NCBI GenBank assembly: GCA_964016885.1
Contig: OZ024743.1
Span: 202,926,001 to 202,990,000 of the forward strand
DNA length: 64,000 bases
Reading direction: 5' to 3'
DNA from: Eledone cirrhosa
Taxonomy: Eukaryota
Shown here piece after piece: positions 3,640 through 61,034 of the stretch (position 1 is the first letter of the stretch; the number at the start of each line of letters is the position of its first letter). A model generated the notes under the pieces. The model saw nothing but the letters and a program-made list of their open reading frames with translations, was not told the DNA's origin and searched no databases. Position numbers and translations under genes: made by a program.

Positions 3640-3877
<238 letters not shown>

Positions 3878-5198: not shown

Positions 5199-5345
5199 GG
5201 AAAAGAGTCAGGACGTCGACGGCTGAGCTCCGGCCGTTTCGACAGCTCCACCTGAACGCACTCTATTTCCGACTCTACTACCCTAAGTATCGAGTAATCC
5301 GGTGCGTTATGGTCCACCTGGTTCCTTACCACACATCCTTCATTA
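5197..5345 (+). mobile_element. Short non-autonomous copy of the same PLE 3' end with an inverted 5' segment
   Basis: Inverted HHR 3' half (gacggctgagctccggccgtttcga) joined to ctctactaccctaagtatcgagta...ggttccttaccaca; flanked by (TA)n on both sides. Confidence 0.75.
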
Positions 5346-5471
5346 TATATATATATAATATATATATATATGTGTGTGTGTGTATGTGTGTGTGTATGTG
5401 TGTGTGTGGGGGGGGGTGTATGTGTGTGTGTGTGTGTGTGTGCGTGTATGTATATACTGAAGAAATTTAAC

Positions 5472-7609: not shown

Positions 7610-7642
<33 letters not shown>

Positions 7643-7697
7643 GTGAGGTTTTTTTTACAAAATGAAAACTAACCGAAGTGTCCTACACGAGTGAAAG

Positions 7698-7886
7698 TAT
7701 AAAGAAAAAGAGATGAAATCGAAAATGCAACTGGATGTGAGAAAAACCACGGACCCTCCATCTCAACTCACCTTTTGAAAAGCAGAAGAACTGCGAAACC
7801 GGTAAAGGAACCAAATAAATATATATATTTAAAAAAAAAAAATAAGACTCCAGTTGCATTTTCGATTTCATCTCTTTTTCTTTATA
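7698..7886 (+). mobile_element. 189-bp fold-back element with 38-bp inverted ends enclosing an HHR
   Basis: 7698-7735 is the reverse complement of 7849-7886; ends in (TA)n; related copy at ~21971-22105 lacks the inverted end. Confidence 0.8.
7771..7808 (+). ncRNA. Minimal type I hammerhead, U3-A8 core variant
   Basis: CCUU-UUGAAAA-GCAG AAGAA CUGC-GAAA-CCGG-UA^AAGG; all three stems form; palindromic ACCGGU. Confidence 0.82.
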
Positions 7887-7896
7887 TATATATATA

Positions 7897-8088
7897 TAGG
7901 AACGAGTAGGACCCCGACGGCTGAGCTCAAGCCGTTTCGACGGCTAATTATGTCCAGAATTAACCTTCGAAACGGCTTGAGCTCATCCGTCGGGGTCCTA
8001 CTCGTTCCTATTACCCACTCTACTACCCTAAGTATTGAGTACTTTGGTGCGTTATGGTCCACCTGGTTCCTTACCACATTTCCTTCGT

Positions 8089-8090
<2 letters not shown>
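7897..8090 (+). mobile_element. Non-autonomous PLE 3'-end copy with ~44-bp inverted duplication (hairpin)
   Basis: 7897-7940 pairs with 7967-8010; the tail matches 28713-28793; flanked by (TA)n. Confidence 0.85.
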
Positions 8091-8129
<39 letters not shown>

Positions 8130-9679: not shown

Positions 9680-9715
9680 TTTTACCGGTTGCGCATTTCT
9701 AATGCTTTTCAAAAA
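9680..9715 (-). ncRNA. Degenerate hammerhead, same family as 7771-7808
   Basis: UUU-UUGAAAA-GCAU UAGAA AUGC-GCAA-CCGG-UA^AAA; stem II covaries with GCAG/CUGC; GAAA mutated to GCAA. Confidence 0.65.
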
Positions 9716-9780
9716 TAATTTTGAGATAGAGTGCTCGTGATGTTTGCTCTAATCCGATATATATATATATATATATACAT

Positions 9781-9980
9781 ATAACAAAGAAAGTGTGGTA
9801 AGGAACCAGGTGAACCATAACGCACCAGAGTACTCGATACTTAGGGTAGTAGAGTGGTAATAGGAAAAGAGTCAGGACCCCGACGGCTGATCTCCGACCT
9901 TTCGACAGCGAGATCCTAACAGTTTGGATCTAGCTGTCGAAACAGCCGGAGCTCAGCCGCCGGGGTCCTGACTCTTCTCC

Positions 9981-13515: not shown

Positions 13516-13556
13516 ATATTTGATACGATGAAATCACTCATCGAAATCGGTAATAT
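13516..13556 (+). ncRNA. Hammerhead motif, U3-A8 variant with A9 changed to C
   Basis: AUAU-UUGAUAC-GAUGA AAUCAC UCAUC-GAAA-UCGG-UA^AUAU; resembles 48498-48543. Confidence 0.6.
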
Positions 13557-17191: not shown

Positions 17192-18255
17192 TGAAGTAAA
17201 GGTTATGTGGAAATATCCGAGAGTAAGAGCACTCAGTCCATAGGAAGTGTTTAGTATAAATAATTACAACAGTGATATAAACAGGGACTCAAGTTTCGTT
17301 GGCCTCTGGGCCCCAATATCTTCAGCCTGTCATGAGAAAAATAAAAAACAAAGATAGCCGTCTATAGTTGGTTGTGCTTTCCCTATGGAGATATAACAAA
17401 TAACAAAAGAGTTCATGCAGGGGTAGGTAATTTAGAAAAAGTATAGAAAAAAGGGGTTATATTTTAAAATCAGGGTAGATTATAGGGGCGGTAATTCTTG
17501 AGAGACCACAGTCAATTCAAAATGGAAATAGAAGCCCATTAATTTCTTCTAGTTGACTCCAGGATCATATTTCACTGAAATACAATATATCAGTAACTCT
17601 AAAGATACTTCTGGGCGTGTTAGTCAGGCCTAAGCCATTTATCTTAAATATATTCTTCACATGGGGACAACCACCAAAGCAATCTAGTCGTGTGTTGGGG
17701 CAGTGCTTATCCGAAGCTAATTGTGAGAGTATCCACCATTTATCGGAATTACAAAGCCGACAACATTTCGACCCATTTACGTAGGCGGTAGATCTTTCCA
17801 AAATACGCCATTTGATGGAAAAAGGCGTGCCATTTTTCTTAAGGTTCCATACGTGGTTTGTGAGCTGGGTGGTTTGTTTTTTATCAGGATATCTGATGTT
17901 GTTTCGTGATTCCGGAACCGGTTTTAAAACCAGCTCTCCGACATACCAACATAGGTCCAGGCTTTAGTTTGATCCTGGTTGGTGGAGGTAAGCTCTGATT
18001 GGTATATCACTGCCGGAGTGTTGCACTGTTGGTCTAGTGGACATGTATCAGGTCTTCTATATGAGCATCCATACGGTGGAAGGCTTTTATGTTTGCCGGT
18101 GATATAGGTTTTTACATTGTTGGTGCAAGAATATCCTATTTTTACTGTATGGCGATTAAATATCTTTCGGTATTTATGGCCAACAGAAGATCTATGAGGT
18201 CTAACAATTGTTTGCCTACATTTGTCTTCACATTGAGTGATAAAGGTGGTGCGAA
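17190..18255 (-). mobile_element. 5'-truncated Penelope-like element (Naiad-like): GIY-YIG endonuclease remnant plus 3' end with HHR
   Basis: KIFNRHTVKIGYSC...CPLDQQC...VIYQ...YVGMSE...CRLC...GGCPH, with stop and frameshift; HHR at 17281-17330; ends in (TA)n. Confidence 0.88.
17281..17330 (-). ncRNA. Type I hammerhead ribozyme in PLE 3' end
   Basis: ACAGG-CUGAAGA-UAUUGGGGCCCAGAGGCCAAC-GAAA-CUUGAG-UC^CCUGU; perfect 5-bp stem I. Confidence 0.85.
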
Positions 18256-18773
18256 CACACATACACTCCCTACCACACATATAAATATATATGTGTGTGT
18301 GTGTTTCTGAGTTTATGTGTAGATTCGCGGGTGAATATGTATTAGAATATATAAAGTTGAGAAATTTTTATTATAGAGCGCATTGCAAAAATTCTTTGTA
18401 ATAACATTAAATAAATACTTTTTATTATTAGTTCAGAACAATTTTATCATCACATATGAATGTCACCCAACCCACAACATTTGTGATTATATGTTTAAAA
18501 CACATTTCGTTATAAAACACCTCATCTGTCGCTTGTTTCAATCTACTGATGGCGTTTGTATGCGTTTCTACGAACAACGCGTTCTTCCACATACAGTCAT
18601 CTTCCCACATTCCATATCACAACCATGCAACTATAGTCATAACACTGCAAAAGCGATATTGTTTACATGATGAAACATATCCAATTTATTTACGTAGTCC
18701 GTCCTGCATATGTTTTGCACATCGGATGACAGTTTACCGCCTATGTATGTATATATATCTATCTATCTATATA

Positions 18774-22032: not shown

Positions 22033-22070
22033 CCTTTACCGGTTTCGCAGTTCTCGTGCTTTTCAAAATT
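22033..22070 (-). ncRNA. Hammerhead, U3-A8 family of 7771-7808, stem I degraded
   Basis: AAUU-UUGAAAA-GCAC GAGAA CUGC-GAAA-CCGG-UA^AAGG within element ~21971-22105 flanked by (TA)n. Confidence 0.68.
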
Positions 22071-25699: not shown

Positions 25700-25793
25700 A
25701 CCCCGACGGCTGAGCTCAAGCGGTTTCGACGGCTAATTCTGGACTAAATGAAAATTTATCCTGGTATTTAAATAGCCGAGCTTCTCAAGGGGT
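25700..25793 (-). ncRNA. Hammerhead (U3-A8 variant) in the inverted pseudo-LTR
   Basis: ACCCC-UUGAGAA-G..CGGCUA...UAGCCG.C-GAAA-CCGCU UGAGCUC AGCCG-UC^GGGGU; one mismatch in stem III. Confidence 0.75.
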
Positions 25794-25891
25794 AATTCCA
25801 TATATGGTCAAAGTGATTGTCACAAGGATTGGTCACAAGTTAGTAGTAATTCTGTGATGGCAAATTAGTGGGGGAAGGGCTAGCTAAACCT

Positions 25892-27128
25892 CCCAGTGGA
25901 TAAAAAGAGCTCCCGACTCACCCTTCGACGTCAGCATGGGCGCTACGGATTCGGCGGAGGTCACAGATCTTATAGGATTATTCCTAATAGCCAAACTCAC
26001 TGATATGTTTCCTGCATTCGGTGGTGGATTGTACCATGATGATGGGCTCCTTACCCTTAAAGGGTACAACCCCAGTAGTACAGATCGAGTCCGGAAACAA
26101 TTAAACAGCTTCTTCCGCGACTGGGGATTTAAAATAACCCTACAAACGTCCCTGACCCGAGTAAACTTCCTGGACGTTACCCTCGACCTCAAAAACGACC
26201 TGTACTACCCATACAGGAAACCTAATGACAACCTGCACTACACCCACCGCCGTTCAAACCATCCTAGGAACATCACCAATAACCTGATCAAAAACATCTC
26301 CCTCCGCATATCCCCTTTGTCAGCTAATGAGCAGATATTCGATGAACATGCGCCTTATTACAACCAGGCCCTCAAGCGGAGTGGTTTCCGGGAGGAAATA
26401 TCCTAATGTCCAGCTCCCATTAGCGGAACCAGCAGGCGACACCGCCGCTCACGCAATGTAACATTGTTCAATCCTCCCCACAACGCAGAGGTGACAACTC
26501 CCATCGGGAAAATATTCTTTAGGCTCATTGAAAAACACTTCCCACTACAACACCGCTACCACAACATAATTAACAAAAATACCATCAAACTCTCTTACAG
26601 CACTACACCAAACTTCGCACAAAACATCGTCTCCTCCAACAACAAAAAACTCAACCCCGATGGAAGAAATAACCTAAATAGCAGTGGAGAGCCGACCAGG
26701 AGGTGCAACTGTCCTGATAGATCCATTTTCCCCCTCGACAACAGATGCAGAGACCGTAATGTGATCTACCAGTGCAACGTGAGGATGGACACCTCCAACA
26801 AAGCATATATAGGATTAACCGCATGTGACTTCAAGACCCGGCTATACCAACATAGACATACCTCCGAAACCCGGCCCGGCGTCACGCCACTACACTTTCG
26901 GGCCACATATGGGACCTCAAGGACAACAACATCACCTATGATCTCACTTGGAGATTACTGTCCAGAGCCAACTCTTACACGGGAGGACGCCGTCCGTGCA
27001 ATTTATGCTCGGAGGAAACTTTACAAATGCTGTTTTCAACGGACCAACTCCTAAACAAGAAAGATGAACTGGTTACTGCATGTAAACACAGATTGCGTAG
27101 GACTTACCTCGCCCTCAAACCCCATAAT
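25892..27128 (+). pseudogene. PLE reverse transcriptase C-terminal part plus GIY-YIG endonuclease, disrupted by a stop (26404-26406) and a frameshift (~26870)
   Basis: ORFs 25936-26406 and 26464-27054; the other frame continues CNLC...LLNKKDEL..CKH. Confidence 0.9.
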
Positions 27129-28234
27129 AACCCGGGGGGTAGACTAGGGCTATAACACCCCACTTGCCGATTTTGTAATGGGTAAGCCCTGCGTGTAAAA
27201 AACAGAGGATGTAATAAAATAACAAAGAAAAATTCCCCAATAGGGGGGGGGACTTCCGAGGGACATTTGTGGAGAAAGCCCATTAAAAGACCGCAGTGAC
27301 CCTGACCACCAGGGCAAGTGCCCTCTCCCAGTTTTCCACCTTTAATTTGCAGACACATACTCAGAGAAGGCCCATTCATTCGGGCCATACTTGCTTCTCT
27401 CACCCATCTTTCAACAAAATGCTGGGAAGAGAGCACTTCCCTCTCTACCCTGATTTTCCTTTTCAAATGAAATTTGAAAAAGTTAATCAGGGCATCGCCG
27501 AAGAGGTAAGTGCTCGTCTTCAGCCCTTTCAAACGTGTCCACCATACTATCTATCCAAGGGAGACGTAAGATCTTCTTTTATATTCTTTTATCGCTTCCT
27601 CTATATTTCCTTCTTTCCCCATCCCTCCCTAGTCCTTCTACCCCAGTTCTTTTTCTTTGTCGGCGTTTTTTTCAGTACCCCCACCCCATCCCCTAGTCTT
27701 TGTTAGATTTGGCGGACTCCGCTTTCTATAGCAGTTGTGTTAGACCTCGGATACTTGCCCCCTTATCCGACCGCTCCCCCTTTTGTCCGTGCCTTCTATA
27801 TTTCTTAGTGGCATCTCTGCTTTATTTCTCGTTTATTCAGTTGTTCTTTCTTCTCTTTTCTTTTGGGCGTGGTGGATTCTGAATTAATTTTCCGTATTCT
27901 ACTTTTACTTTGTACTAATTTTCATGTAGCTTGTATAAGAACTTTTGTAGCGTGGCGGTACCCTTAGAGTTAGCATTAGTATATTTTTTTCGGGACTCTG
28001 ATTTATTATTTCGTACTAGTTTACTTTTCTGCACTGGGTGGTTGCTGGCTTTGTGCCCGGGGTAGAAACCTTTATTAATTATTTCGTGGTAGTTTCTTTA
28101 GTATTTTGGCCCCCTTTTGTTGACCCGTCACTGTATGATATACGTACTTTTACCTCTTAAAAGGGTCCTTTCCTATTCCGTCCCACCTAGTTTATTTATT
28201 TATTATTTTTTTATTTCTTTATCTATTTATTCAT

Positions 28235-28605: not shown

Positions 28606-28699
28606 GCCCCTTGAGAAGCTCGGCTATTTAAATACCAGGATAAATTTTCATTTAGTCCAGAATTAGCCGTCGAAACGGCTTGTGCTCAGCCGTCGAGGT
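28606..28699 (+). ncRNA. Hammerhead (U3-A8 variant) in the 3' pseudo-LTR
   Basis: GCCCC-UUGAGAA-G..CGGCUA...UAGCCG.C-GAAA-CGGCU UGUGCUC AGCCG-UC^GAGGU; 6-bp stem III; one mismatch in stem I. Confidence 0.78.
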
Positions 28700-28840: not shown

Positions 28841-29216
28841 TAACAGGTGAACAGAAATAACAACACAATCTTTACAGTATATGGAAAGTATAAATTAAGT
28901 TAACGCTTGATATAGCAGGAAGAGGGCCTTAACCTTTCGGACGCTAGTCCTTCATCAGAAGAAAGAATGAGAAATAAGACAGATTAAGGAGACGAGTGGG
29001 ATGGAATTAGAAAAAAATGTCTTTAGATAAAAATAACAGGTCCATTGATCTTGACATCTCTTTCAAAAATGTTGGTGCTGGCGTTTTGTATATGATTTGT
29101 CTTTTAGAAAAGTGGATGATGGAGCGGGTCATCCTGAAATGGAAAAAAAAAAACCTTTAGTAAAAGAGCTATACTTGAGCACGTGCGTAAGCATGTGTTT
29201 GTGTATGTGTGTGTGC

Positions 29217-29360: not shown

Positions 29361-30535
29361 ATAGGTCCGTACGAAACTAAGAAGTAATGTTTGTGTATAT
29401 GTGAGTAAAAGAGTGTGTGTGCATGCAAGTATGAAGCTATGAGAAAAAGTATGTTAATATAACGCTGTGTATCGGCATGTATTAGTTGTAAGAGAAGCTT
29501 CTAATGATCAATAGAAAGCGATAGGAATCTAGGGGTGTGATAATGGACGGGGTATTAGAGAAATTGTCGAGGTGAGTTGAGTCCAAGAGGGGTTAGGACC
29601 CATGGCGGTGAATCAAACTTTATACAGTCCTGGTGTGCGAGGCCTGTTATCCATGATGTAAAAGAACACCCAGGACTGATACATGTAGGGAAGAATGACC
29701 AGGAGAACAGAAATGACGGGCGACAGAATTATCCAAACCGAGTCTGATGTCCCTCAAATGTTCGATAAAACGGTCCGCCATACAGCGTCCCGTTTGTCCG
29801 ATATATAAAGACCCACAGAGGGAACACCGGAGGGCATAGAGAACGTCGGTGGATATGCAGGTGAAGAAATGGCGGATACAGAAAGACCCGTTAGTGCAAC
29901 GGGAACAAGGATGAGAGCCGGGTGGAGTCGTGGGAGGGGACGAAAAGCAACTGCGAACAAGGAGGTCGTGCAGGTTTCGGGCGCGCTTAAAAGCAGTAAT
30001 GGGTGGATTTGGAAAAAAACGAGAAGTGACGGGTCAGAAGAGAGGATACGGAAGGAACGGAGAATATGTCACCGGTGTGGTAGGGTGATGAGGTGGTAGG
30101 TGAGAGGGAAAAGAACACGGGTGTTGGGAGGGTGGGAATGAGGTGAGAGGGCCGTGGTGCGGTCTGTTTCACAGGCGTGGGGGGAGAGTAGCTTGGATCA
30201 AGGTGGGGGGTGGATATCCACGCTGTTTGAAGCAGGAAGCCATGAGAAGCTAATGGGTTTCGAAATCGTCGTCCCGGCTACATAGTAGACGAAGACGGAG
30301 GAATTGGGAATAGGGTAAGGAGTGTTTGGTGTGGTTTGGATGGGAGGAGGTTATGTCGCGATAAGATTGGGAGACTGTTGGTTTAATAAAGATGGAAGTA
30401 GAGAGGATGTGGTGAGAGTGATTAATAGATAGAGAGATATCTAGAAAAGCGACAGAAGAATCGGAGACGGAGGCGTTGAAATTGAGAGCAGGATGGAAAG
30501 ATTGGACAAAAGAAAGAGAACAGTTGAGCTGTCTC
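28841..30535 (-). mobile_element. 5'-truncated Penelope-like element of a second clade (Neptune-like), degraded, interrupted by (TG)n at ~29200-29355
   Basis: RT thumb FLDISL...SSHPNHTKHSLPYSQFLRLRLLCS (30250-30537); hand-translated GIY-YIG FTCISTDVLYALRCSLCGSLYIGQTGR...DRFIEHLRDIR (~29700-29885); HHR at 28928-28961. Confidence 0.88.
28928..28961 (-). ncRNA. Minimal PLE-type hammerhead
   Basis: CUU-CUGAUGA-A-GGAC UAGC GUCC-GAAA-GG-UU^AAG; stem III nearly absent. Confidence 0.7.
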
Positions 30536-38276: not shown

Positions 38277-39400
38277 TTACGGGGCCAATGCACCCTTCCA
38301 CCTGAACGGGTCATATTTCTGTATGTTGGTGGTGGTGGTGGTGGTGTGGGGGGGGGGGGGGGGGGGCGAAGAAACAAGTGTATGTGGCGAAGAAAAAGAA
38401 GGGGGCATTTGTGGTTCAAGTGTCACTGTGTCAGTGTCCAGATTGGCTCGTTTGAGGCGATCAACCGAAATAGTTTCCCTGGACCCCCTAATGTCCACTG
38501 TGAAATGTTTCTCTGTACAAGCAAGCACACGATAGGGTCCAGAGTACGGCCGTGTGAGAGGGGTTCTCACAGCGTCGTCTCTAACGAACACATGTGTCCA
38601 CAAGGCAATATCCCTTGGGACGGCAGTTTTTAAAGTTTGCTTCCTAGTGTCCAACGGTGGTAAATCCTGGAAGTAAGAATGAAGCCGGGACACGTAGGAA
38701 GCCGGATCCTGCGAAGCAAGATCAACAGGAGCAAGCATTTGTCCTGGTAACGCAAGAGGAGTACCATAAATCAATTCGGCCGGGGAGAACCCAAGGTCCA
38801 CCTTTATTGTCGACCGAATACCTAACAACACAATAGGTAGGTACTCACTCCAACGTGAAGAGTCCATTGAAGCCCTTAAAGAGGCTTTAAGCTGTCTGTG
38901 AAATATTTCCACCATTCCGTTTGATGCTGGATGATATGCCGTGGTTCTTATGTGAGTGGCGCCAATAATTTGTGTTAATTCACAGAAGAGGTTCGATTCA
39001 AATTGACGACCGCGGTCTGTTGTTATTGTGGTTGGTACTCCAAAACAAGCGATCCATGCAGATACGAGAGTACGCGCTGTCGTTTCAGCAGTGATGTCTG
39101 TCAGAGGGATGGCTTCAGGCCAACGCGAAAAACGGTCAACGATCGTCAAAATATACGAATAACCACGACTAATCGGCCAGAGGCCGACGATGTCCACATG
39201 AATGTGACGAAATCTGGCATCAGGACAGGTGAAAGTTCCGAGAGGAGTTTTAACGTGCTTATGAACTTTTGACTTTTGGCAAGCGACACAGGAACGGCAC
39301 CAAGCAGCAATGTCACGTCTCATATCAGGCCAGAAAAATCTGGCTGTTATGAGTTTTACCTAGGCTGTAGCTCCTGGGTGAGAAATGCCATGAAAGCGAG
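38277..39400 (-). pseudogene. pol: Integrase domain (zinc finger CxxC, DDE core, GPY/F motif)
   Basis: [42 protein letters not shown]. Confidence 0.93.
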
Positions 39401-40905
39401 AAATACAGTTCGTCGATGACCAACTGGGACGAGAGGTCGTGGTGAGTCCAACGAGATATCACAAAGTATCTGTCCGTCAGCGGTTGATAAAGGAAGGTAT
39501 TTCATATTGCAGTTAATGAACTCCGGCGATGTGCAATCCAATGATTCAAGCGAGGGTTGGTCAATGGCCATTTGACGCAAATCTATATCGTTAGACGATG
39601 AGATCGAAGCTATCGGTAGGCGAGACAAGACGTCTGCCGCAGTGTTCAAAGCACCCGGAATATGTTGAATATCATTGGTGTATTGGGAAACAAAATCCAG
39701 ACGTCTAGTTTCCCTAGGCGAATATTTGTCAGATTTTGATCTTAAAGCGAAAATCAACGGTTTGTGATCTGTGAAAATAGTGAACGCTCTCCCGTCCAGA
39801 ACATGGGAGAAATGTTTCACAGATAAATAAATTGCTAAAAGCTCACGCCCGAAAGTACTATAACGATTTTCGGCAGGCTTTAACTTTCTCGAAAAAACTT
39901 CCAGTGGTTGTTGTAAACCATCACACTTCTGTTGCAAGACTGCGCCCACGGCGGTATCCGACGCATCAACACAGAGCGATAGCTCGGCGTTGGGTACTGG
40001 GTGGGCGAGCAAAGACGCGCTCGCTAACGCCTTTTTCACTTTTTTAAAATCCTCAAGCTGCGTTTTATTTAAGGAAACGTCCATATTCTTACGCCGGCAA
40101 TTTTTCAAAATTTCTGTCAACGAGAACAGCAAGCTGGAACAATTAGGTACGAATCGCCTATAAAAATTTACAAGGCCTAAGAATTGACGTAATTGTCGCA
40201 GTGAACTTGGCGGAGGCAAATCCGATATTGCCTTAACCTTCTCGGGAAGAGATCGAATACCATCGGTGTCAATCAGATGGCCTAAAAATGTTAGTGAGGT
40301 CGAGCAGAAAACACACTTGGAAGCATTAATAAGAACATTATATCTCTGTAAACGACGAAATAAGAGATCCAGATGCTTTGAATGCTGCTCAGGAGAACTA
40401 GCAATCAACACATCATCGATATACATGTACACAAAATCCAGGCCCGAGTAACATCATCCATAAATCGTTGGAAGGTACTAGCCGCATTTCTTAGCCCGAA
40501 AGGCATAGTAAGGAACTCGAAGGATCCAAAAGGAGTGGCAATAGCAGTCTTCGGAATATCCTCCTTTTTAACCGGAATCTGATTATAAGCACGAATCAAA
40601 TCGTGCTTAGAAAAAATTGTGCAACCTTGTAATGAAGAAGTGAAATCCTGCAAATACGGGATTGGATAACGGTCAGGCACAGTAATCGCGTTTAAGCGTC
40701 GGTAGTCACCCGTCGGTCTCCAATCACCAGAAGATTTAAGTACCATATGTAGAAGCGATGCCCAAAGACTTGTGGAACGCCGAATTATTCCTAACTCCAG
40801 CATGTGGTCGAATCCAGACCGTGCAGCCTTCAACTTCTCTGCAGATAACCTTTGAGGACGTGAGACAACAGGTGGTCCTGTAGTGGATATAAAGTGTTCA
40901 ATCAC
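39356..40905 (-). pseudogene. pol: Reverse transcriptase and RNase H domains, frameshifted near 40430
   Basis: [40 protein letters not shown]. Confidence 0.95.
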
Positions 40906-40940
40906 ATGATCCGGACTAGCAATTCATAATCTTCCTTGCG

Positions 40941-41429
40941 TCAGTGTGGGAATGATTTTAACAAACTGTGATACTGGTTGCCCACGTCAGCCAAGAAAAA
41001 AGCAGGGCTTACTGTGGCGATCTCCGGCTTTGTACCCTCGAACGATAGGCCTGTATTAGCATCAAAAAGTAGTTGTCTGCGGATGTCAATCGACAAGGAA
41101 AAATGGTGGAGGAAATCCGCTCCCAAGATAGCATATGGTAAGTCGGCGATAGTAAATTTCCACCTAAAATCATGGCGAAGATTTGTAAACTTAAGAGGAA
41201 GCGAAATTTGTCCATAAGTTCGAATCGCCGTACGGTTAACTGCTTGCAAAGTGATAGTGGCCTCAGGTGGAGTATTATCAAGATAACTAACTGGCCAAAT
41301 ACTTAGTGTCGCGCCAGTGTCGATAATAAAAAGTTTTTTTGACTGCAGGTCGTACACAAATAGATGACGGTTTGGTCGAGTTTCCCAGAGTTCACTAGCC
41401 GCCCCTAGTGGCTCTGATTGGCGTTTTCC
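40941..41429 (-). pseudogene. pol: Aspartic protease domain
   Basis: FIIDTGA and ILGADFL; the frame stays open upstream to the GGAAAAC heptamer overlapping the gag end. Confidence 0.9.
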
Positions 41430-42199
41430 GAACTCCTATAGTTACAAGGCGCCCGACAGCGCTGCGCCCGTTTACCAAAGTTTGCATGATACCAACAAAG
41501 TTGAGGATTACTACTACCTGTAGTGTAGTGGCGGCGAGGAACAGCAGACGGGGGCGAATGATACCTCAGACGTTGGGATGGCTCTCTGTTTTTGACAGTC
41601 AAAACATCCACTTTCCTGGTCAGCGCTTCGATTGCTTCCAGCAGTTTTTCCTCGGCTAAAGACGATTTGTGCAGGGGAACGGAAGAAGAAGCAACATAAG
41701 AATTATGTAGGCTGCTTTTTAAATCCAATTCTAGGATTTTATCGGCAGATGCAGCGATCTGATCCAAAGAATCTCTCTCCAAAGTATTTACTAGAAGCAT
41801 CTGTGCACTCGGCGGCAAACGAGAGAAAAACAACTGTTTAATGAAGGATGTATCAATTCCTTGGGAGTCGCTCAGCTCATGTAGATGCCGCAAATAGGAG
41901 GTTGGCGTTCTGTCACCCATCTGTGCATCCTCAAATAATTCCCGAAAACGGCTCTCCACAGACTTAGTATTCCTACGAAGAATTTCCAGTTTTAATAACC
42001 CATAGGCTACGTCTGCAGCTAAATTCGTTACAACATCCTTTACGGAATATGCCAAAGAAACAGGCAGGCCATTAATAAGCACCTTCAATTTATGCTGTTC
42101 TTTGGTGTGGGTCAAGTCGAAATAGCACTCGAGCTGCGAAAACCATAGTTTAATATCGCCCGCAAATATCGGAAAATGATGTGAATTCATGATGCCCAA
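41405..42199 (-). CDS. gag: Gag-like protein, 264 aa
   Basis: Open ORF with LWFSQLE, MGDRTPT and C-terminal CWYHANFGKRAQRCRAPC knuckle. Confidence 0.9.
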   Translation of the reverse strand: MGIMNSHHFPIFAGDIKLWFSQLECYFDLTHTKEQHKLKVLINGLPVSLAYSVKDVVTNLAADVAYGLLKLEILRRNTKSVESRFRELFEDAQMGDRTPTSYLRHLHELSDSQGIDTSFIKQLFFSRLPPSAQMLLVNTLERDSLDQIAASADKILELDLKSSLHNSYVASSSVPLHKSSLAEEKLLEAIEALTRKVDVLTVKNREPSQRLRYHSPPSAVPRRHYTTGSSNPQLCWYHANFGKRAQRCRAPCNYRSSENANQSH

Positions 42200-42584
42200 G
42201 GATTTGATGAATTTTTAAGGCCAAATTATTTCTTCGAAGGAGCTATGCGACCAAAAAGTGACACTGGAATCCAAAATCTTATTCACGCGAATTCAACTGA
42301 AATTCCTTTTGAAAATTCTCGCCGGCCAAAATAAAATTTGAATAATAAAAAAAATTATTTCCATGAAAATTAGTTGGTAAGAAAATCCCAAGATGGCTGA
42401 TTGAAAAATGTGTTTGTGTTGAAGAAGGCGTCATGTGCCACGATGCAGCCAAAATTTTATATCCAGAGAAATCCTTTTTTTTTTTTTAAAGAGAGAAGTT
42501 GATGCAAGAGGAAAAATATTGTTCACTCAAAGACAAGATACCAAACAACAACGGGCATGAATTCCATATATATATGTACAGCGT

Positions 42585-49613: not shown

Positions 49614-49789
<176 letters not shown>

Positions 49790-49987
49790 ACGTACATACA
49801 TATATGTATACAGACGTACAGTAGTATGTATATGTATACATACATGCACACATATATATATGCACGTATCGGTTTATCGAAGATTTATTATAATGCACGG
49901 TTTGTTTGTAAACAAACAAACAGCCCGAATTATGCCGTACAGTGTTTAGGCAACCACGTCACCTTTTTGTTCAACACTGATACAGGA

Positions 49988-50030
49988 ACGATGTACTCGT
50001 TTCAAGCTTATTAGCTATCGTCAGCATCGT
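49988..50030 (-). ncRNA. Hammerhead in the inverted unit
   Basis: ACGAUG-CUGACGA-UAGCU AAUA AGCUU-GAAA-CGAG-UA^CAUCGU. Confidence 0.82.
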
Positions 50031-50405
50031 ATACCTTCCAGCCAGATGGTTGAACGTCTGAAAGTATATACTTTCCTTATGCATATTAACGGCTTCATAA
50101 ACGGAGCATTATAATAAATCTTCGGTAAATGATACGTGCATATATACATGTGCATGTATGTATATATACACATACTACTGTACGTCTGTATACATATATG
50201 TATGTACGTATACATACATACTTACATTTAAGTAACTGCCGTACTAAGAGTGAGAAATGAAATTTCATTTCTTCTATTCCATTTATCGTTTTCGGTGCGC
50301 CCGGCCTACTAAACTCACTCGATATGCCAATTAGGCTGCTCGGCCGTTAATATGCATAAGGAAAGTATATAATTTCAGACGTTCAACCATCTGGCTGGAA
50401 GGTAT

Positions 50406-50448
50406 ACGATGCTGACGATAGCTAATAAGCTTGAAACTAGTACATCGT
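50406..50448 (+). ncRNA. Minimal type I hammerhead (intact core)
   Basis: ACGAUG-CUGACGA-UAGCU AAUA AGCUU-GAAA-CUAG-UA^CAUCGU; perfect 6-bp stem I. Confidence 0.87.
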
Positions 50449-50842
50449 TCCTGTGTCAATGTTGAACAAAAAGGTGACATGGTTGCCTAAACACTATACG
50501 GCATAATTCGGGCTGTTTGTTTGTTTACAAACAAACCGAGCATTATAATAAATGTTCGGTAAACCGATACGTGCATATATATATGTGTGCATGTATGTAT
50601 ATATATACATACTACTGTACGTCAGTATGCATATATGTATGTACGTATACATACATACTTACATTTAAGTAACTGCCTTACTAAGAGTGAGAAATGAAAA
50701 TTCGTTTCTTCTATTCCATTTATCGTTTTCGGTGCGCCCGGCCGTCTACACTCACTCGATATGCAAATTAGGCTGCTGAGCCGTTAATATGCATAAGGAA
50801 AGTATACACTTTCAGACGTTCGACCGTATGACAGGAAGCTAT

Positions 50843-50885
50843 ACGATTCTGACGATAGCTAATAAGCTTGAAACGAGTACATCGT
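50843..50885 (+). ncRNA. Hammerhead with a stem I mismatch next to the core
   Basis: ACGAUU-CUGACGA-...-GAAA-CGAG-UA^CAUCGU. Confidence 0.75.
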
Positions 50886-51166
50886 TCCTGTGTCAGTGTT
50901 GAACAAAAAGGGGACGTGGTTGCCTAAACACTGTGCGGCATAATTCGGGCTGTTTGTTTACAAACAAACCGAGCATTATAATAAATGTTCGGTAAACCGA
51001 TACGTGCATATATATATGTGTGCATGTATGTATATATATATATACATACTACTGTATGTCTGTATACATATATGTATGTACGTATACATACATACATACT
51101 TACATTTAAGTAACTGCCGTACTAAGAGTGAGAAATGAAATTTCGTTTCTTCTATTTCATTTATAA

Positions 51167-51294: not shown

Positions 51295-51495
51295 TTGTGT
51301 CTATATTGTATCTGTATTATTTTTGACCGCAGGTCAGTCAATGGCAACATTGAGGACCGAGTAAGTTAGATCGCAGATATAAAAGACGAGAAGCGAAAAC
51401 CAACCAAACAGTGAGTGTGTTCTGTTATTAATTCTGGCAATATTACGCAAATATGACCCTCCCCAAATATAACAATATATATATATATATATACA

Positions 51496-51537
<42 letters not shown>

Positions 51538-51538
51538 C

Positions 51539-51572
<34 letters not shown>

Positions 51573-51574
<2 letters not shown>

Positions 51575-53937
51575 GGATAAATGCCTTCACAGAGTCTCAT
51601 GAGCTGTTAGCCCAACTTTACAATGAAATAGTTAAGGAGCCAGGAAAGATACCTTCATGGCTAGTTAACGGCATTACATTCCTGCTTCCGAAGAATGATG
51701 AGACAAACAATCCCAAAAATTACAGACCGATAACCTGCTTGACCACAATGTATAACATTTTAACATCAGTCCTAACTGAATACACACATGACCACCTGAT
51801 AACAAATGACCTATTTCCCATTGAGCAGAAAGGGTATAAACGAGGCTCATATGGCTGTAAGGATCAGCTTCTGGTTAACAAAATGATACTGGAAGATTGT
51901 CATAATAGACATAAAAATCTATCGATTGCTTGGATAGATTATAAAAAAGCATTTGATAGTTTGCCACACAGTTGGATTGAAAAATGTTTAGAGATTTTCA
52001 AAGTATCCCCCGTTGTCAGGAGGTTTTTGTCATTCAGTATGAAGACATGGAAAACGACACTCCTTTTGAATAGTGAAACAAAATCACTGGAAGCTGGAGA
52101 AGATAATATTAATTGTGGAATTTTTCAGGGTGACTCTTTCTCACCGCTTTTATTCTGCATCGCACTTATACCATTAAGTAAAATGCTCAATGAAACAAAA
52201 CATGGATATAGAGTCTATGACAAAACCATTAATCACTTGTTCTACATGGATGACCTGAAACTATTTGCAAAAAAATGATGAACAATTGCAATGGCTATTA
52301 TCCAATGTGAAACAGTTCAGTGATGACATTAAAATGGAGTTTGGACTAGATAAATGCGCCAAAGCAACGTTCACCAGAGGAAAGCTGCTGAAGAGTTCAG
52401 ACATTAATCTTGATCGGGGGAACGTGATAAGAGAACTTGATCAAGAAAAAACTTACAAATATCTAGGTGTTTGTGAAGGAGACGGAATCAAGCACTCGAC
52501 AATGAGGGAAAGGATAAGGAAGGAATGTTACCGCAGAGTAAGAGCCATCTTAAGAACGGAATTGAATGCAAGGAATAGGATCGATGCCATAAACACGCTT
52601 GCCATACCAGTAGTAACCTACAGTTAGAATGTCATCAACTGGTCAAGCACAGAGATCCGTAGGCTCGATACAAAAATTCGAAAATACTTAACCATGCACA
52701 GAATGCATCACCCTAAAGCAGATATAGATAGAATATATCTCCCTAGGAAAGAAGGAGGACGTGGGTTAATCCAGTTAGACATTGCGTTGAAAACTGCAAC
52801 AATTGGATTATCTACATATCTAAGGGAATCACATGATTGGATGATCAAACTCGTTTTGAAACACGAAAGCATCAAAAGATCATATTCCATTACAAAAGAT
52901 GCACAAAGATACAGTAATGGACTACAAATTTCAGAAGTCCCATTTACTGCTGAAATGGAAAACACAGAAAAAGCAAAGCAGGTAAAAGTAACTGCAAAGA
53001 AAGAACTGCTACAGAAACTGGCTAAGAAATGGCAAGAAAAGCCTCTGTATGGAAAATACCCAGAGCGAGCTAACAATCCTGATGTTGACAAAACTTTAAC
53101 CCATCAGTGGTTGGCATCCTCTGGACTGAAATCGGAGACTGAAGGACTGATTATATCGGCACAAGATCAGTGTCTGCCAACAAAAAATTACCAAGCCAAC
53201 ATAATAAAAAATGGGTGCAGCCCATTATGCCGTGTATGCAAAAAAGAACCAGAGACCATTGACCATATAATTTCAATGTGCAGTCCTATAGCTCCAACCG
53301 AATACCTAAACAGGCATGACAGAGCTGCACAATACATACATTGGATAATGTGTAAGCATTTTGACCTGCCCCATCAAAAGAATTGGTGGGAGCATCAACC
53401 ACCTCCCATACTTGAAAAAATCACATCTCAATCTTGTGGAACTTTAGCATCCAAACAGACCGAAAAATAGATGCAAACAGACCTGATATAATATTGAAGG
53501 ACTTTCAAAAGAGGGTATGCCTGCTAATTGATATGTCTGTTCCAATAGACAAGAATGTATCTATAAAAACATTTGAAAAATTGAGCAAGTATAAGGACCT
53601 GGAGATAGAAATTGGAAAAATGTGGAAATTGAGAACTAAAACAATACCAGTGTTTGTAGGCGCTCTGGGAATGATACCTAAGGGGTCTAATGATTACTTA
53701 TCGCAAATCCCAGGAAACCCGCGTATAGGAGAAATACAAAAGATAGTACTAATGGGAACTGCCCATATACTAAGGACGATTCTGTCAATATAAGTACATC
53801 ACAAGTCTAAACACTAAAGATGTATGTGTGAGTATGTATGTTCTTTCTTGAACATGGCGGACCTTGTTGTCTCTTGAGGTCACTGGTTGTGACTTGGTGA
53901 TAACTCGTATGAACATAAAGCAAGATAAATGCAACTG
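51573..53937 (+). mobile_element. R4/Dong-like non-LTR retrotransposon, family A copy 1 (5'-truncated, disrupted)
   Basis: RT YRPITCL, DYKKAFD, GIFQGD, HLFYMDDLK; CCHC CRVC..ETIDHI..C; RLE RPDII..LIDMS..EKLSKY; bounded by (TAA)n. Confidence 0.93.
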
Positions 53938-53970
53938 TAGTAATAATAATAATAATAAGAAGAAGAAGAA

Positions 53971-54872
53971 GAAAAGCCTCTGTATGTAAAATACCCAGAG
54001 CGAGCTAACAATCCTGATGTTAACAAAACATTAACCCATCAGTGGTTGGCATCCTCTGGACTGAAATCGGAGACTGAAGGACTGATTATATCAGCACAAG
54101 ATCAGTGTCTGCCAACAAAAAATTACCAAGCCAACATAATAAAAAATGGATGCAGCCCATTATGCCGTGTATGCAAAAAACAACCAGAGACCATTGACCA
54201 TATAATTTCAATGTGCAGTCCTATAGCTCCAACCGAATACCTAAACAGGCATGACAGAGCTGCACAATACATACATTGGATAATGTGTAAGCATTTTGAC
54301 CTGCCCCATCAAAAGAATTGGTGGGAGCATCAACCACCTCCCATACTTGAAATAGATCACATCTCAATCTTGTGGAACTTTAGCATCCAAACAGACCGAA
54401 AAATAGATGTAAATAGACCTGATATAATATTGAGGGACTTTAAAAAGAGGGTATGCCTGCTAATTGATATGTCTGTTCCAATAGACAAGAATGTATCTAT
54501 AAAAACATTTGAAAAATTGAGCAAGTATAAGGACCTGGAGATAGAAATTGGAAAAATGTGGAAATTGAGAACTAAAACAATACCAGTGGTTGTAGGCGCT
54601 CTTGGAATGATACCTAAGGGGTCTAATGATTACTTATCGCCAATCCCAGGAAACCCGCGTATATGAGAAATACAAAAGATAGTACTAATGGGAACTGCCC
54701 ATATACTAAGGAAGATTCTGTCAATATAAGTACATCACAAGTCTAAACACTAAAGATGCATGTGTTAGTGTGTATTTTCTTTCTTGAACATGGCGGACCT
54801 TGTTGTCTCTTGAGGTCACTGGTTGTGACTTGGTGATAACTCGTATGAACATAAAGCAAGATAAATGCAACT

Positions 54873-54873
<1 letters not shown>
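53971..54873 (+). mobile_element. R4/Dong-like family A copy 2 (CCHC, RLE and 3' UTR only)
   Basis: Near-identical to 53035-53937; followed by (TAA)n. Confidence 0.93.
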
Positions 54874-54925
<52 letters not shown>

Positions 54926-54927
<2 letters not shown>

Positions 54928-56690
54928 GGCATTTGACATGGTGCCTCATTCTTAAGGCATTTGACATGGTGCCTCATTCTTGGATCACCAAAAGCCTGGA
55001 GATCTTCAAGGTGGCAGATAACATCAGGCAGTTGTTGGGCAAAAGTATGAAGTCCTGGGAAACAGAGTGAACATCAACTGGAGAATCCTTGGGAAGCGTG
55101 AAGAGCAAGAGAGGTATCTTCCAGGGAGATAGTCTGTCCCCTCTGTTGTTTGTCCTTGCCCTGTTGCCCCTGACCAGTCTACTTCTAAAAGTGAGAGCAG
55201 GATACAGGTTGGGAAAGGGAGGGCTTACCATCAATCACCTCCTCTTCATGGACGACCTTAAGCTCTTCGGGAAGAGTGAGAAGCAGTTGGATGTGCTTGT
55301 TGACACTGTCCGTATTTTCAGCAATAATATATGTATGCAATTTGGTATTAGTAAGTGTGGAGTCATTGTGATGAAGAGGGGTAAATTGAGCAGAAGTAAC
55401 GGAATCCAGGTACCAACAGGTGATATGATAAAGGAAATTGACTCTGAAGAAGGATACAAGTATTTGGGTGCTCTGGAGGCTGATGACATCAAGAACAAAA
55501 AATGAAGGAATTTATAAGAACTGAATACATTCGGAGAATAAGGAGCGTATTAAAGTCACATCTGAACAGTAGGAATGCCATAAGTGCAGTAAATTCCCAA
55601 GCTGTGTCTATTATTAGGTACAGTGCGGAAATTCTGAGATGGAATGTTGCTGAACAAAAAGAAATGGATAGAAAGACTAGGAAGCTATTGACTATCTACA
55701 ATATGTTCCACAAGAGGAGTGATGTCGATAGACTCTACTTAAGGAGATCTGAGGGTGGAAGAGGTCTTATCAGCATAGAGGACTGTGTTCAGATGGAGAA
55801 AAACAACCTACACAAATACGTGACTGATAGTAAGGAGCCAATGCTCAGAGCTGTTCTGAAGGAGGGGACAATAGGCCAGGGGATGTCCAAGGAGGAAATA
55901 ACATCAAGGGAAAGAGCAGCCTTCAGGAAAAATCCCTTCATAGTACCTTCTTTGAGAAAACTGAATTTAGAGATCAACAGACATGGAACTGGTTGAAAAG
56001 AGGAGACCTTAAAAAGGCTACAGAAGGAATGATAATGGCTGCGCAAGATCTGTGGAGAGAGAGAGGAGACTGTGGCTCACATTGTATCCGAGTGTAAACA
56101 CCTAGCCCAGACTCACTATAAGGGCTGGAGACATGATGTGATGGGCAGGGTGATCCACTAGCACCTATGCAAAGTAAACAATTTACCACATTCTGAGAAG
56201 TGGTATGAGCATAAGCCAGAGGGGGTGATAGAAAACGATCAGGTGAAGTTGCTATGGGATTTTAGGATACAGACGGACAAGAAACTGGAACACAATAGAC
56301 CTGACCTGGTGGTTTTGGACAAAGAAAAAAGATCGTGCCTGATTGTGGATGTGGCCTGCCCATTCGACACGAGAGTGCAAGAGAAGGAGAGGGAGAAAAT
56401 TAACCGGTACCAGGACTTAAAGTGGGAGGTAAAAAGGATTTGGAACTGCCATGAAGTCAAAGTGATCCCGATTGTCATAGGCACACTAGGGACTATCTCA
56501 AAAAGTTTCCAGGGATGGTTAAAGAAAATTGGCCCCTTCACGCTTTTTGGAACGCTTCAAAAGGCATGCTTGCTGGGAACAGCAAGAACTCTCCGATACG
56601 TCCTGAATATCTGAGGCTGCAGGTAGTGGCTTGATATTCATCTCAACAAACTTTCCAGTTAACTAACATCAATGACTGAGACTCAAAGAG
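54926..56690 (+). mobile_element. R4/Dong-like family B copy 1 (5'-truncated, internal deletion near 56047)
   Basis: GIFQGDSLSP, HLLFMDDLK, RPDLVV..IVDVACP; 28-bp tandem duplication at its 5' junction. Confidence 0.92.
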
Positions 56691-56719
56691 TAATAACAAT
56701 AATAATAATAATAATAATA

Positions 56720-56984
56720 GAGATAAAAAGGATTTGGAACTGCCATGAATTCAAAGTGATCCCGATTGTCATAGGCGCACTAGGGACTATCTCAAAATGT
56801 TTCCAGGGATGGTTAAAGAAAATTGGCCCCTTCACGCTTTTTGGAACGCTTCAGAAGGCATGCTTGCTGGGAACAGCAAGAACCCTCCGATACGTCCTGA
56901 ATATCTGAGGCTGCAGGTAGTGACTTGATATTCATTTCAACAAACTTTCCAGTTAACTAACATCAATGACTGAGACTCAAAGAG
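56720..56984 (+). mobile_element. R4/Dong-like family B copy 2 (3' 265 bp)
   Basis: Matches ~56426-56690; bounded by (TAA)n. Confidence 0.9.
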
Positions 56985-57012
56985 TAATAACAACAATAAT
57001 AATAATAATAAT

Positions 57013-59555
57013 TTGTCATTATGTTTAGCATCCTGCTCCCATATTCCTCTCCAGAACGTCTTAGTTTGTTCCGCCTCAGGGATCAAGTCGTTGCCTCTTT
57101 CTTTCCCTTCGAAGATGCTGTTTGGACAGCTTGAAGGGAAAGAAATAGTCAACGACTTGATACCTGAGGCGGAACAAACTAAAACATTCTGGAGAGGGAT
57201 ATGGGAGCAGGATGTTAAACATAATGACCAGGCAGTGTGGATTGAGACAGTACAAAAGGAGATTAGTGAACAGGCACACCAACAAACTGATTTTAGCATC
57301 ACAGTTGAATCTCTTAAGAGGCAGGCCAACAAACTAACCAACTGGAAATCACCAGGCCCAGATGGTGTGCAGGGGTATTGGATTAAATATATAACATCCC
57401 TCCACCCGAAACTGACAACCATGTTCTGTTCAATGACTTCTTGATGTCAGGTGAGGTACCAGAGTGGTTGACAAAAGGTACCACAGTTCTGATAATGAAA
57501 GACCGAATCAAGGGTAATGATGTTACTAACTATAGACATATCACATATCTGTCCGTAATGTGGAAACTGTTGACAAGCATTATGTCTGAGGAAATCTACC
57601 ATCACCTCCACACAAACAACTTGTTATCGGACGAACAGAAAGGATGGCGAAAGAAGTCACGTGGTACAAAGGACAAGTTACTAATTGATAAGATGGTAAT
57701 GAGGAATTGCAGGAGGAGACACACTGGTCTTTCCATGGGATGGATAGACTACAAAAAGGCATTTGACATGGTGCCTCATTCTTTGATCACCAAAAGCCTT
57801 GATATCTTCAAGGTGGCAGATAACATCAGACAGTTGTTGGGCAAAATTATGAAGTCCTGGGAAACAGAGTTAACATCAACTGGAGAATCCTTGGAAAGCG
57901 TGAAGATCAAGAGAGGTATCTTCCAGGGAGATAGTCTGTCCCCTCTGTTGTTTGTCCTTGCTCTGATGCCCCTGACCAGTGTACTGCGAAAATTGAGAGC
58001 AGGATACAGGTTGGGAAAGGGAGGGCTTACCATCAATCACCTCCTTTTCATGGACGACCTTAAGCTCTTCGGGAAGAGTGAGAAGGAGTTGGATGTGCTT
58101 GTTGACACTGTCCGTATTTTCAGCAATGATATATGTATGCAATTTGGTATTAGTAAGTGTGGAGTCATTGTGATGAAGAGGGGTAAATTGAGCAGAAGTA
58201 ACGGAATCCAGGTACCAACAGGTGATATGATAAAGGAAATTGACTCTGAAGAAGGATACAAGTATTTGGGTGCTCTGGAGGCTGATGACATCAAGAACAA
58301 AAAATGAAGGAATTTATAAGAACTGAATACATTCGGAGAATAAGGAGCGTATTAAAGTCACATCTGAACAGTAGGAATGCCATAAGTGCAGTAAATTCCC
58401 AAGCTGTGTCTATTATTAGGTACAGTGCGGGAATTCTGAGATGGAATGTTGCTGAACAAAAAGAAATGGATAGGAAGACTAGGAAGTTATTGACTATCTA
58501 CAACATGTACCCCAAGAGGAGTGATGTCGATAGACTCTACTTAAGGAGATCTGAAGGTGGAAGAGGTCTTATCAGCATAGAGGACTGTGTTCAGATGGAG
58601 AAAAACAACCTACACAAATACGTGACTGATAGTAAGGAGCCAATGCTCAAAATTGTACTGAAGGAGAGGACAATAGACCAGGGGATGTCCAAGGAGGAAA
58701 TAACAACAAGGAGAAAGAGCAGCCTCATGAAAAATCCCTTCATAGTACATTCTTTGAGAAAACTGAATTCAGAGATCCACAGACATGGAACTGGTTGAAA
58801 AGAGGAGACCTTAAAAAGGCTACAGAAAGAATGTTAATGGCTGCGCAAGAGCAGGCCCTCAAACGAAGTGGTTGAAACACCATATTTACAAGGAGGAGGC
58901 TAGCCCACTGTGCAGGATCTGTGGAGAGAGAGAGGAGACTGTGGCTCACATTGTATCCGAGTGTAAACACCTAGCCCAGACTCACTATAAGGGCTGGAGA
59001 CATGATGTGATGGGCAGGGTGATCCACTGGCACCTATGCAAAGTAAACAATTTACCACATTCTGAGAAGTGGTATGAGCATAAGCTAGAGTCGGTGATAG
59101 AAAACGATCAGGTTAAGGTGCTGTGGGATTTTAGGATACAGACGGACTAGAAACTGGAACACAATAGACCTGACCTGGTGGTTTTGGACAAGGAAAAAAG
59201 ATCGTACTTGATTGCGGATGTGGCCTGCCCATTTGACACGATAGTGCAAGAGAAGGAGAGGGAGAAAATTAACCGATACCAGGACTGAAAGTGGGAGGTA
59301 AATAGGATTTGGAACTGCCATGAAGACAAAGTGGTCCCGATTGTCATAGGCGCACTAGGTACTATCTCAAAAAGTTTCCAGGGATGGTTAAAGAAAATTG
59401 GCCGCGCCACGCTTTCTGGAACGCTTCAAAAGGCATGCTTGCTGGGAACAGCAAGAACCCTCCGATACGTCCTGAATATCTGAGGCTGCAGATAGTGACT
59501 TTATATTCATTTCAACAAACTTTCCAGTTAACTAACATCAATGACTGAGACTCAA
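57013..59555 (+). mobile_element. R4/Dong-like family B copy 3 with inverted 5' segment
   Basis: WKSPGPDG, RT ORF 57441-58307, CRIC..ETVAHI..C, RLE with stops; followed by (TAA)n. Confidence 0.93.
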
Positions 59556-60978: not shown

Positions 60979-61034
60979 ACTGCCTGATGAGGTCATAGCC
61001 ATTCAATGGCTATCATCGAAATATATATAGCAGT
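60979..61034 (+). ncRNA. Type I hammerhead ribozyme in a ~170-bp insert between (TA)n tracts
   Basis: ACUGC-CUGAUGA-GGUC AUAGCCAU UCA AUGGCUAU CAUC-GAAA-UAUAUA-UA^GCAGU; perfect 5-bp stem I, long stem II, palindromic stem III. Confidence 0.85.

Follow-up and report, generated by a model that had tools for sequence, protein, structure and literature searches.

A likely self-cutting hammerhead motif with a U3-A8 core in the pseudo-LTR of a young Penelope-type element of Eledone cirrhosa

Background

In the active hammerhead fold, positions 3 and 8 form a Watson-Crick pair, and U3-A8 keeps this pair. Small hammerhead variants that are associated with Penelope-type elements (PLEs) and act as dimers are reportedly, judging by its title, the subject of a paper by Lunse, Weinberg and Breaker in RNA Biol. 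According to the available text of Cervera & De la Pena 2014 (PMC4209133), the minimal hammerheads of PLEs show low cleavage, which is limited to dimers and multimers, and U3-A8 is found among those of the Schistosoma mansoni Cercyon PLE, with ~1,300 hits. Similarly, U3-A8 is described as a natural core covariation active in vitro in the accessible sections of Perreault et al. 2011 (PMC3088659), where the compensatory change is identical to the one reported here and the examples are not tied to PLEs in section 8. A limited literature search returned 'U3-A8', among the matches listed, in PMC4209133 only. The U3-A8 variant itself is already published, and what is new here is the member families that carry this known variant.

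The PLE clades to which the families of this study (lettered below) are most similar are those described in the available parts of Craig et al. 2021 (PMC8557442). The Hydra clade corresponds to families B and D in its RW[K/R] and DKT/DKA motifs, CxCx5C linker, C-terminal GIY-YIG without CCHH and (TA)n targets, while Neptune corresponds to families A, C, and F in its GxKF, DKG, CX2-5CxxC and CCHH motifs. Inverted 5' arms and one-sided tails are common to those PLEs and ours, although the tails here are ~60 (family A) and ~80 (family B) nt rather than 30-40, and three Hydra-type families here carry U3-A8 whereas the main text there calls Hydra hammerheads canonical.

Here, we analysed 64,000 nucleotides of E. 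cirrhosa (contig OZ024743.1 of assembly GCA_964016885.1, positions 202,926,001 to 202,990,000; hereafter the window), drawn from a (TA)n-rich genome of 3.0 Gb. The context is useful in that two PLE families of this one genome, both young, with open frames, and from different clades, carry U3-A8; sister families with C3-G8 and a damaged-core subfamily stand alongside, and together they provide matched natural constructs for PLE hammerhead function.

Results and discussion

A minimal type I motif carrying the U3-A8 core pair

The motif at 7771-7808 (+) is laid out as CCTT / TTGAAAA / GCAG-AAGAA-CTGC / GAA / ACCGGT / A / AAGG (Table 1). Stem I is formed by CCTT/AAGG (7771-74/7805-08; 4 bp) and stem II by GCAG/CTGC (4 bp, closed by G10.1-C11.1), followed by GAA, the palindrome ACCGGT (7798-7803) and A17 (7804). 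In the core TTGAAAA, U3 (7775) and A8 (7780) replace C3 and G8, and the Watson-Crick pair at positions 3-8 is present as U3-A8; the remaining core bases (U4, G5, A6, A9, G12, A13, A14, A15.1-U16.1, and H17) are all in place. A previous sequence-only reading of this DNA had proposed hammerheads with U3-A8 as a compensatory form of C3-G8, and this proposal holds, with a complete motif at this site and the covariation already in print. Its remark that descriptors built on CUGANGA miss U3-A8 motifs is likewise borne out (e.g., by the TTGAAAA core at 7771).

The palindromic helix III (ACCGGT) makes this a dimer-type motif, and a strict descriptor with palindromic helix III matched two sites in the window, namely 7771-7808 and a canonical CTGATGA motif at 60979-61034. 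An Rfam scan of the window gave no matches at the gathering score, canonical hammerhead motifs included. Energy calculation put the hammerhead fold of the monomer at +0.7 kcal/mol and the dimer in its catalytic register at -18.9 kcal/mol, and the monomer RNA of 7771-7808 is likely inactive regardless of U3-A8 because helix III cannot form in it. The lowest-energy dimer pairs U3 with A17 (-20.3 vs -18.9 kcal/mol), a register that would be predicted to compete with the active one. Overall, we are fairly confident in reading 7771-7808 as a minimal hammerhead motif of the U3-A8 kind that belongs to a pseudo-LTR, its host being a young Neptune-type PLE, with a predicted cut after A17 that would be weak and confined to dimers.

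The motif resembles the Cercyon and other metazoan PLE minimal hammerheads, as presented in the accessible text of PMC4209133, in being type I with a helix I of 4-5 bp and a helix III that is palindromic or absent, and shares with them the dimer design, the pseudo-LTR location, the occurrence of mostly solitary truncated copies and the U3-A8 covariation. Compared with those hammerheads, as far as that text describes them, helix II of family A is short (4 bp) and lacks the bulged base, the palindrome of this family measures 6 nt, family B combines a long helix II with a helix III of 6 bp, and U3-A8 is tied here to Neptune-type and Hydra-clade elements.

Table 1. Coordinates of U3-A8 hammerhead motifs and associated PLE features in the window
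Feature	Position	Strand	Remarks
Minimal type I hammerhead motif, family A	7771-7808	+	Strict descriptor match; predicted cut after 7804
Tail-less arm of family A pseudo-LTR	7733-7886	+	Starts ~72 nt before predicted cut (5' hot spot of the family); ends in (TA)n
Inverted tail-bearing arm of the same insertion	7637-7735	-	Pseudo-LTR positions +43 to +138; without hammerhead
Head-to-head family B mini-copy adjoining the 7771 insertion	7896-8094	.	Both arms start inside helix II; without U3-A8 strand
Subfamily A2 motif, U3-A8	9680-9717	-	Stem II GCAT/ATGC; GCAA replacing GAAA; stem I has 3 A-U pairs
Diverged family C-like copy	13516-13556	+	A9C; palindrome changed to ATCGGT
Older family A copy	22033-22070	-	2-bp stem I; stem II interrupted by a C-C mismatch
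Family B motif, TTGAGAA core	25700-25793	-	Helix II long; one C-C mismatch among the 6 bp of helix III
Family B broken RT C-terminal part and GIY-YIG endonuclease, 5'-truncated	25888-27140	+	95-98% identical to 784-aa frame in locus L191
Family B motif, 3' pseudo-LTR	28606-28699	+	Tail to ~28792; core-adjacent mismatch in stem I
Family C motif, TTGATAA	48498-48543	-	Stem II 7/8 pairs; ACCGGT; stem I 2 bp; Neptune-type, A-related

All seven U3-A8 cores that the sequence-only reading had listed are present (three on the plus and four on the minus strand), although six of the seven copies are damaged and only the one at 7771 is intact. The stem II covariation reported with them (GCAG/CUGC versus GCAU/AUGC) is real too, but represents a single event between subfamilies, on a GCAA background. 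Canonical C3-G8 hammerhead motifs of three other families were also observed in the window, at 60979-61034 (+), 28958 (-), and 12508 (-), the one at 28958 lying downstream of a GIY-YIG fragment (29650-30033).

The host element of the 7771-7808 motif

Walking upstream from family A copies led to a 775-aa frame with RT and, at its C-terminus, GIY-YIG, and many of the 136 scored matches to this frame at 97-100% identity lie in frames of 775 aa. At one locus (L265), same-strand motifs at 2060 and 6739, 4.7 kb apart, flank such a frame. Its motifs (GLKF, DKG, CGRSNCGTC, CCHH-type) fit Neptune as described in the available text of PMC8557442, the label "Neptune-type" being assigned by motif description in a way that does not separate Neptune from Nematis with reference sequences. 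A Pfam search with five PLE fragments gave one sub-threshold GIY-YIG match and nothing else; therefore, the PLE classification rests on motifs and trees. In family A copies, two arms meet head-to-head, one of them bears a tail, and (TA)n lies on the flanks; in the window (7637-7886), a short copy of this doubled-back form was inserted into (TA)n, and the strand of the hammerhead carries no second motif. As RNA, the small motif at 7771-7808 would likely cut itself, and it lies in a pseudo-LTR of a young Penelope-type element.

Two other assignments of this element were discarded. Family A had been considered non-autonomous and placed beside a Hydra endonuclease in locus L192; this endonuclease belongs to a separate C3-G8 element, and the reading was also dropped because the family's own parent frame was found. 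Non-LTR retrozymes are defined by tandem non-coding units that each carry a hammerhead (bioRxiv 2026.07.22.740005, available part), while the 7771 copy is a solitary inverted pair in a family that has a coding parent and was not retained as a non-LTR retrozyme. A retrozyme-like arrangement of 311-bp tandem units with canonical hammerheads and an inverted copy was seen elsewhere (L047:8630-9700).

In both families A (L265:2250-5694) and F (L278:4050-7639), an upstream frame of ~400-450 aa overlaps the RT frame in the -1 phase at TTTTTTA, which we take to be a slippery site, and the overlap is a possible programmed frameshift. A frameshifted ORF1 is mentioned in the Fig. 1 legend of PMC8557442, the clade not being visible in the accessible text.

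Family B and further families

The broken family B frame in the window is flanked by the motifs at 25700 and 28606, and the former belongs to a truncated element of the Hydra clade, where it occupies the inverted 5' arm. Family B led to a 784-aa open frame in a 3531-bp tandem array (L191), which has RWR, SDKT, a CxCx5C linker (CNCPDRSIC), no CCHH and a (TA)n target, matching on sequence motifs the Hydra-clade description in section 11 of PMC8557442, so far as the available text gives it, though the 3531-bp unit exceeds the '<3 kb generally' length of that clade. For the family B motif, the hammerhead fold was calculated at -19.9 (without loop substructure) vs -25.1 for the lowest-energy fold, a result that speaks against an active ribozyme. 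Most family B arms in a random sample of the genome (100 x 10 kb stretches at round coordinates; 1 Mb) are short copies without the 5' core strand, and similar short copies, some of them head-to-head, were observed in the window at 7896-8094, 9781-9960, 3647-3776, and 5263-5349.

The family C motifs (48498 and 13516) lie downstream of a Neptune-type endonuclease, and families D, E, and G also carry U3-A8, D and G adjoining Hydra-type frames. For the C3-G8 family F, a motif taken from locus L075 was rejected, as it belongs to another element; its own motif is CTGAAGA...AGTACT. In one family F copy (L278:3826-3858, C3-G8) a U-U mismatch opens helix II, and a mismatch of this kind is mentioned as a hammerhead variant in the accessible part of PMC3088659.

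Copy ends point to uncut RNA as the probable insertion template

We then compared the ends of copies in the random sample and the window, a set in which the arms of one insertion are not independent and old copies lose their alignment ends. The 5' ends of family A fell at -77 to -69 from the cut in 7/17 arms and never (0/17) within 10 nt of it, while those of family B fell at -44 to -22 in 33/50 arms, with none from -161 to -45 and 1/50 within 10 nt of the cut. TATAAAA occurs at -102 in family A, with the 5' hot spot ~30 nt beyond, and family B has TATTTAAA at -70 and TCATTT at -47, both inside helix II (also in the copy at 28606-28699); we take these boxes to be TATA-like and Inr-like by consensus. 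Since the predicted cut falls within the copies, whose starts lie ~30 nt past the TATA-like box, uncut RNA starting there in the pseudo-LTR was probably the insertion template. The 3' ends are bimodal (family A ~+79/+138; family B +20/+99), a pattern that agrees with an uncut RNA being reverse-transcribed from two internal positions, which is what was shown for the Anolis element. That element, Poseidon PAc, is alike in having two 3' end positions (tail/no tail) and copies from cut-spanning RNA, but belongs to a different clade, and its C3-G8 core overlaps the start codon (Frangieh et al. 2024, PMC11167929, available part).

The least ordinary lead concerns family B, where copy ends suggest that the transcript starts inside the ribozyme, in helix II, though the same 5' boundary could also arise where RT halts at a hairpin, or from a splice junction. 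A search of sequencing runs for family B listed no RNA run containing it, which speaks neither for nor against its transcription. If a promoter lies in the helix II loop, RNA started there would be without the U3-A8 strand, and only read-through RNA, which would come from a tandem copy, a 3' pseudo-LTR or a host gene, would assemble a monomer-competent hammerhead. We hold such a read-through-gated ribozyme to be a tentative and rather unlikely reading; among the papers listed by a limited literature search, none was on a promoter within a PLE hammerhead. If it were true, it would, together with the two or more separate U3-A8 fixations and the GCAA subfamily, make this genome a natural series on when PLE hammerheads matter.

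Chance, origin and possible loss of activity

Could AT-rich repeat DNA yield such matches by chance? The word TTGAAAA has low complexity, no match in the window was reported by Rfam, and a looser descriptor gave one spurious-looking U3-A8 match. We scanned the random 1 Mb with the strict descriptor, leaving positions 3 and 8 free, and obtained 41 matches (33 C3-G8, 6 U3-A8, 1 U3.G8, and 1 C3.A8), which count copies rather than events and include tandem and inverted pairs; the Watson-Crick pair at 3-8 was present in 39/41, and the six U3-A8 matches represent four loci and three families. Five block-shuffles (5 Mb) returned 3 matches, of types T-T, T-C, and A-T, with none C-G or U-A, and this control (41 matches/1 Mb vs 3/5 Mb) largely refutes a chance origin. 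Moreover, the motif occupies a pseudo-LTR position equal to that of the canonical motifs of the sister family F and is present in both pseudo-LTRs of full-length elements, and we regard chance as very improbable. Within families, U3-A8 is fixed, in 66/67 family A, 34/34 family B, and 34/34 family C matches at loci picked by similarity to window copies, and these tallies show a family trait, not selection on individual copies.

The "three independent families" of the sequence-only reading need revision: several families do carry U3-A8, but the Neptune-type endonucleases of A and C are related (48-51% identical, both with GAAACCGGUA) and therefore the window shows two lineages. In an endonuclease tree of 13 rows (~150-aa pieces, some from broken copies), Neptune-type and Hydra split at 100/100, A and C group weakly (81/39) and the branching of B, D, and G shows no firm order. 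C3-G8 families fall on each side (F, Neptune-type; H, I, and K, Hydra), the endonuclease-motif link for C, G, H, I, and K being by position in 1-2 loci each. A single U3-A8 clade was rejected (p-AU 1e-43, 7 U3-A8 rows constrained together and nine to ten endonuclease rows without assigned motif excluded). Conceivably, U3-A8 had a single origin and then passed from one clade to another when pseudo-LTRs were swapped through RT template jumps. A Hydra-type RT fragment is joined directly to a family A pseudo-LTR at the 5' hot spot in locus L017/L193, and in comparisons of the subfamily A2 pseudo-LTR with D (51 vs 48) and G (44 vs 43) the score reached or exceeded the shuffle maximum; the latter scores may reflect (TA)n-rich sequence in the A2 stretch, for which the score with family I, a C3-G8 family, was high as well (0.01). 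Against such swapping, the family A pseudo-LTR does not stand clearly above shuffles when compared with B, D, and G (fractions 0.22, 0.02, and 0.32, A-D being borderline) and aligns instead with that of the C3-G8 Neptune-type F (0.01) and of C (0.003); a separate pseudo-LTR is common to D and G (score 82 vs shuffle maximum 42), and helices I and III differ between the Neptune-type and Hydra-clade lineages. A single origin with transfer is in our judgement improbable, and U3-A8 is likely a family-level trait that was fixed separately in the Neptune-type (A, A2, C) and Hydra-clade (B, D, G) lineages, with at least two origins likely and three not shown. We dropped as unsupported the idea that a register shift in an F-like motif gave rise to the core of family A: the similarity is borderline, and the TATA-to-core spacing fits plain positional homology.

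Under the reading of 7771-7808 as a dimer-type hammerhead, two family A motifs would be predicted to pair through ACCGGT and thereby build helix III, and with two pseudo-LTR motifs 4.7 kb apart, cleavage would trim read-through or tandem RNA. The window copy, a passive short insertion, has no second motif on its strand and therefore would need a partner in trans. Alternatively, the motif could be a vestige, descended from a PLE hammerhead, no longer cleaving in A, A2, and C and carried along in the copied pseudo-LTR. The GCAA core is common to subfamily A2 (4/4 exact matches in the random sample) and the 2-bp stem I occurs across family C (most of 30 loci); given that A2 has spread with GCAA and that family C has this stem, activity may be dispensable or lost. 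The competing U3-A17 pairing in the dimer and the copies that span the cut site agree with this, as does the finding that hammerhead mutants of the Anolis PLE insert normally in vitro (PMC11167929, accessible text). On the other hand, the young open-frame family A retains all core bases and stems, and two or more fixations of the double change to U3-A8, set against the rarity of single mismatches (2/41 matches), argue for selection on the 3-8 pair at the level of master elements. We therefore consider a vestige possible, though doubtful, and favor a motif that would still cleave weakly as a dimer.

Other junctions and retroelements

Several minor observations accompany these families. The junction noted above (L017:537-1700; L193:8443-9650) has a counterpart in locus L029, where unrelated DNA is fused to a family A pseudo-LTR at the 5' hot spot, and on their sequence both are possible template jumps. 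A broken Hydra-type endonuclease of a deep-branching family lies at 17565-18367 (-) of the window, with no hammerhead found within 2.6 kb downstream. Broken gag/protease/RT/integrase-like frames at 38277-42214 (-) presumably derive from an LTR retroelement, and several broken frames with RT and a C-terminal nuclease-like region at 51457-58798 (+) from what we take, again by their motifs, to be non-LTR retrotransposons. Tandem or inverted units of ~440-550 bp at 1300-2700 and 49770-51160 gave no standard-order hammerhead match and carry GAAAGTATATACTT and GAAACTAGT palindromes.
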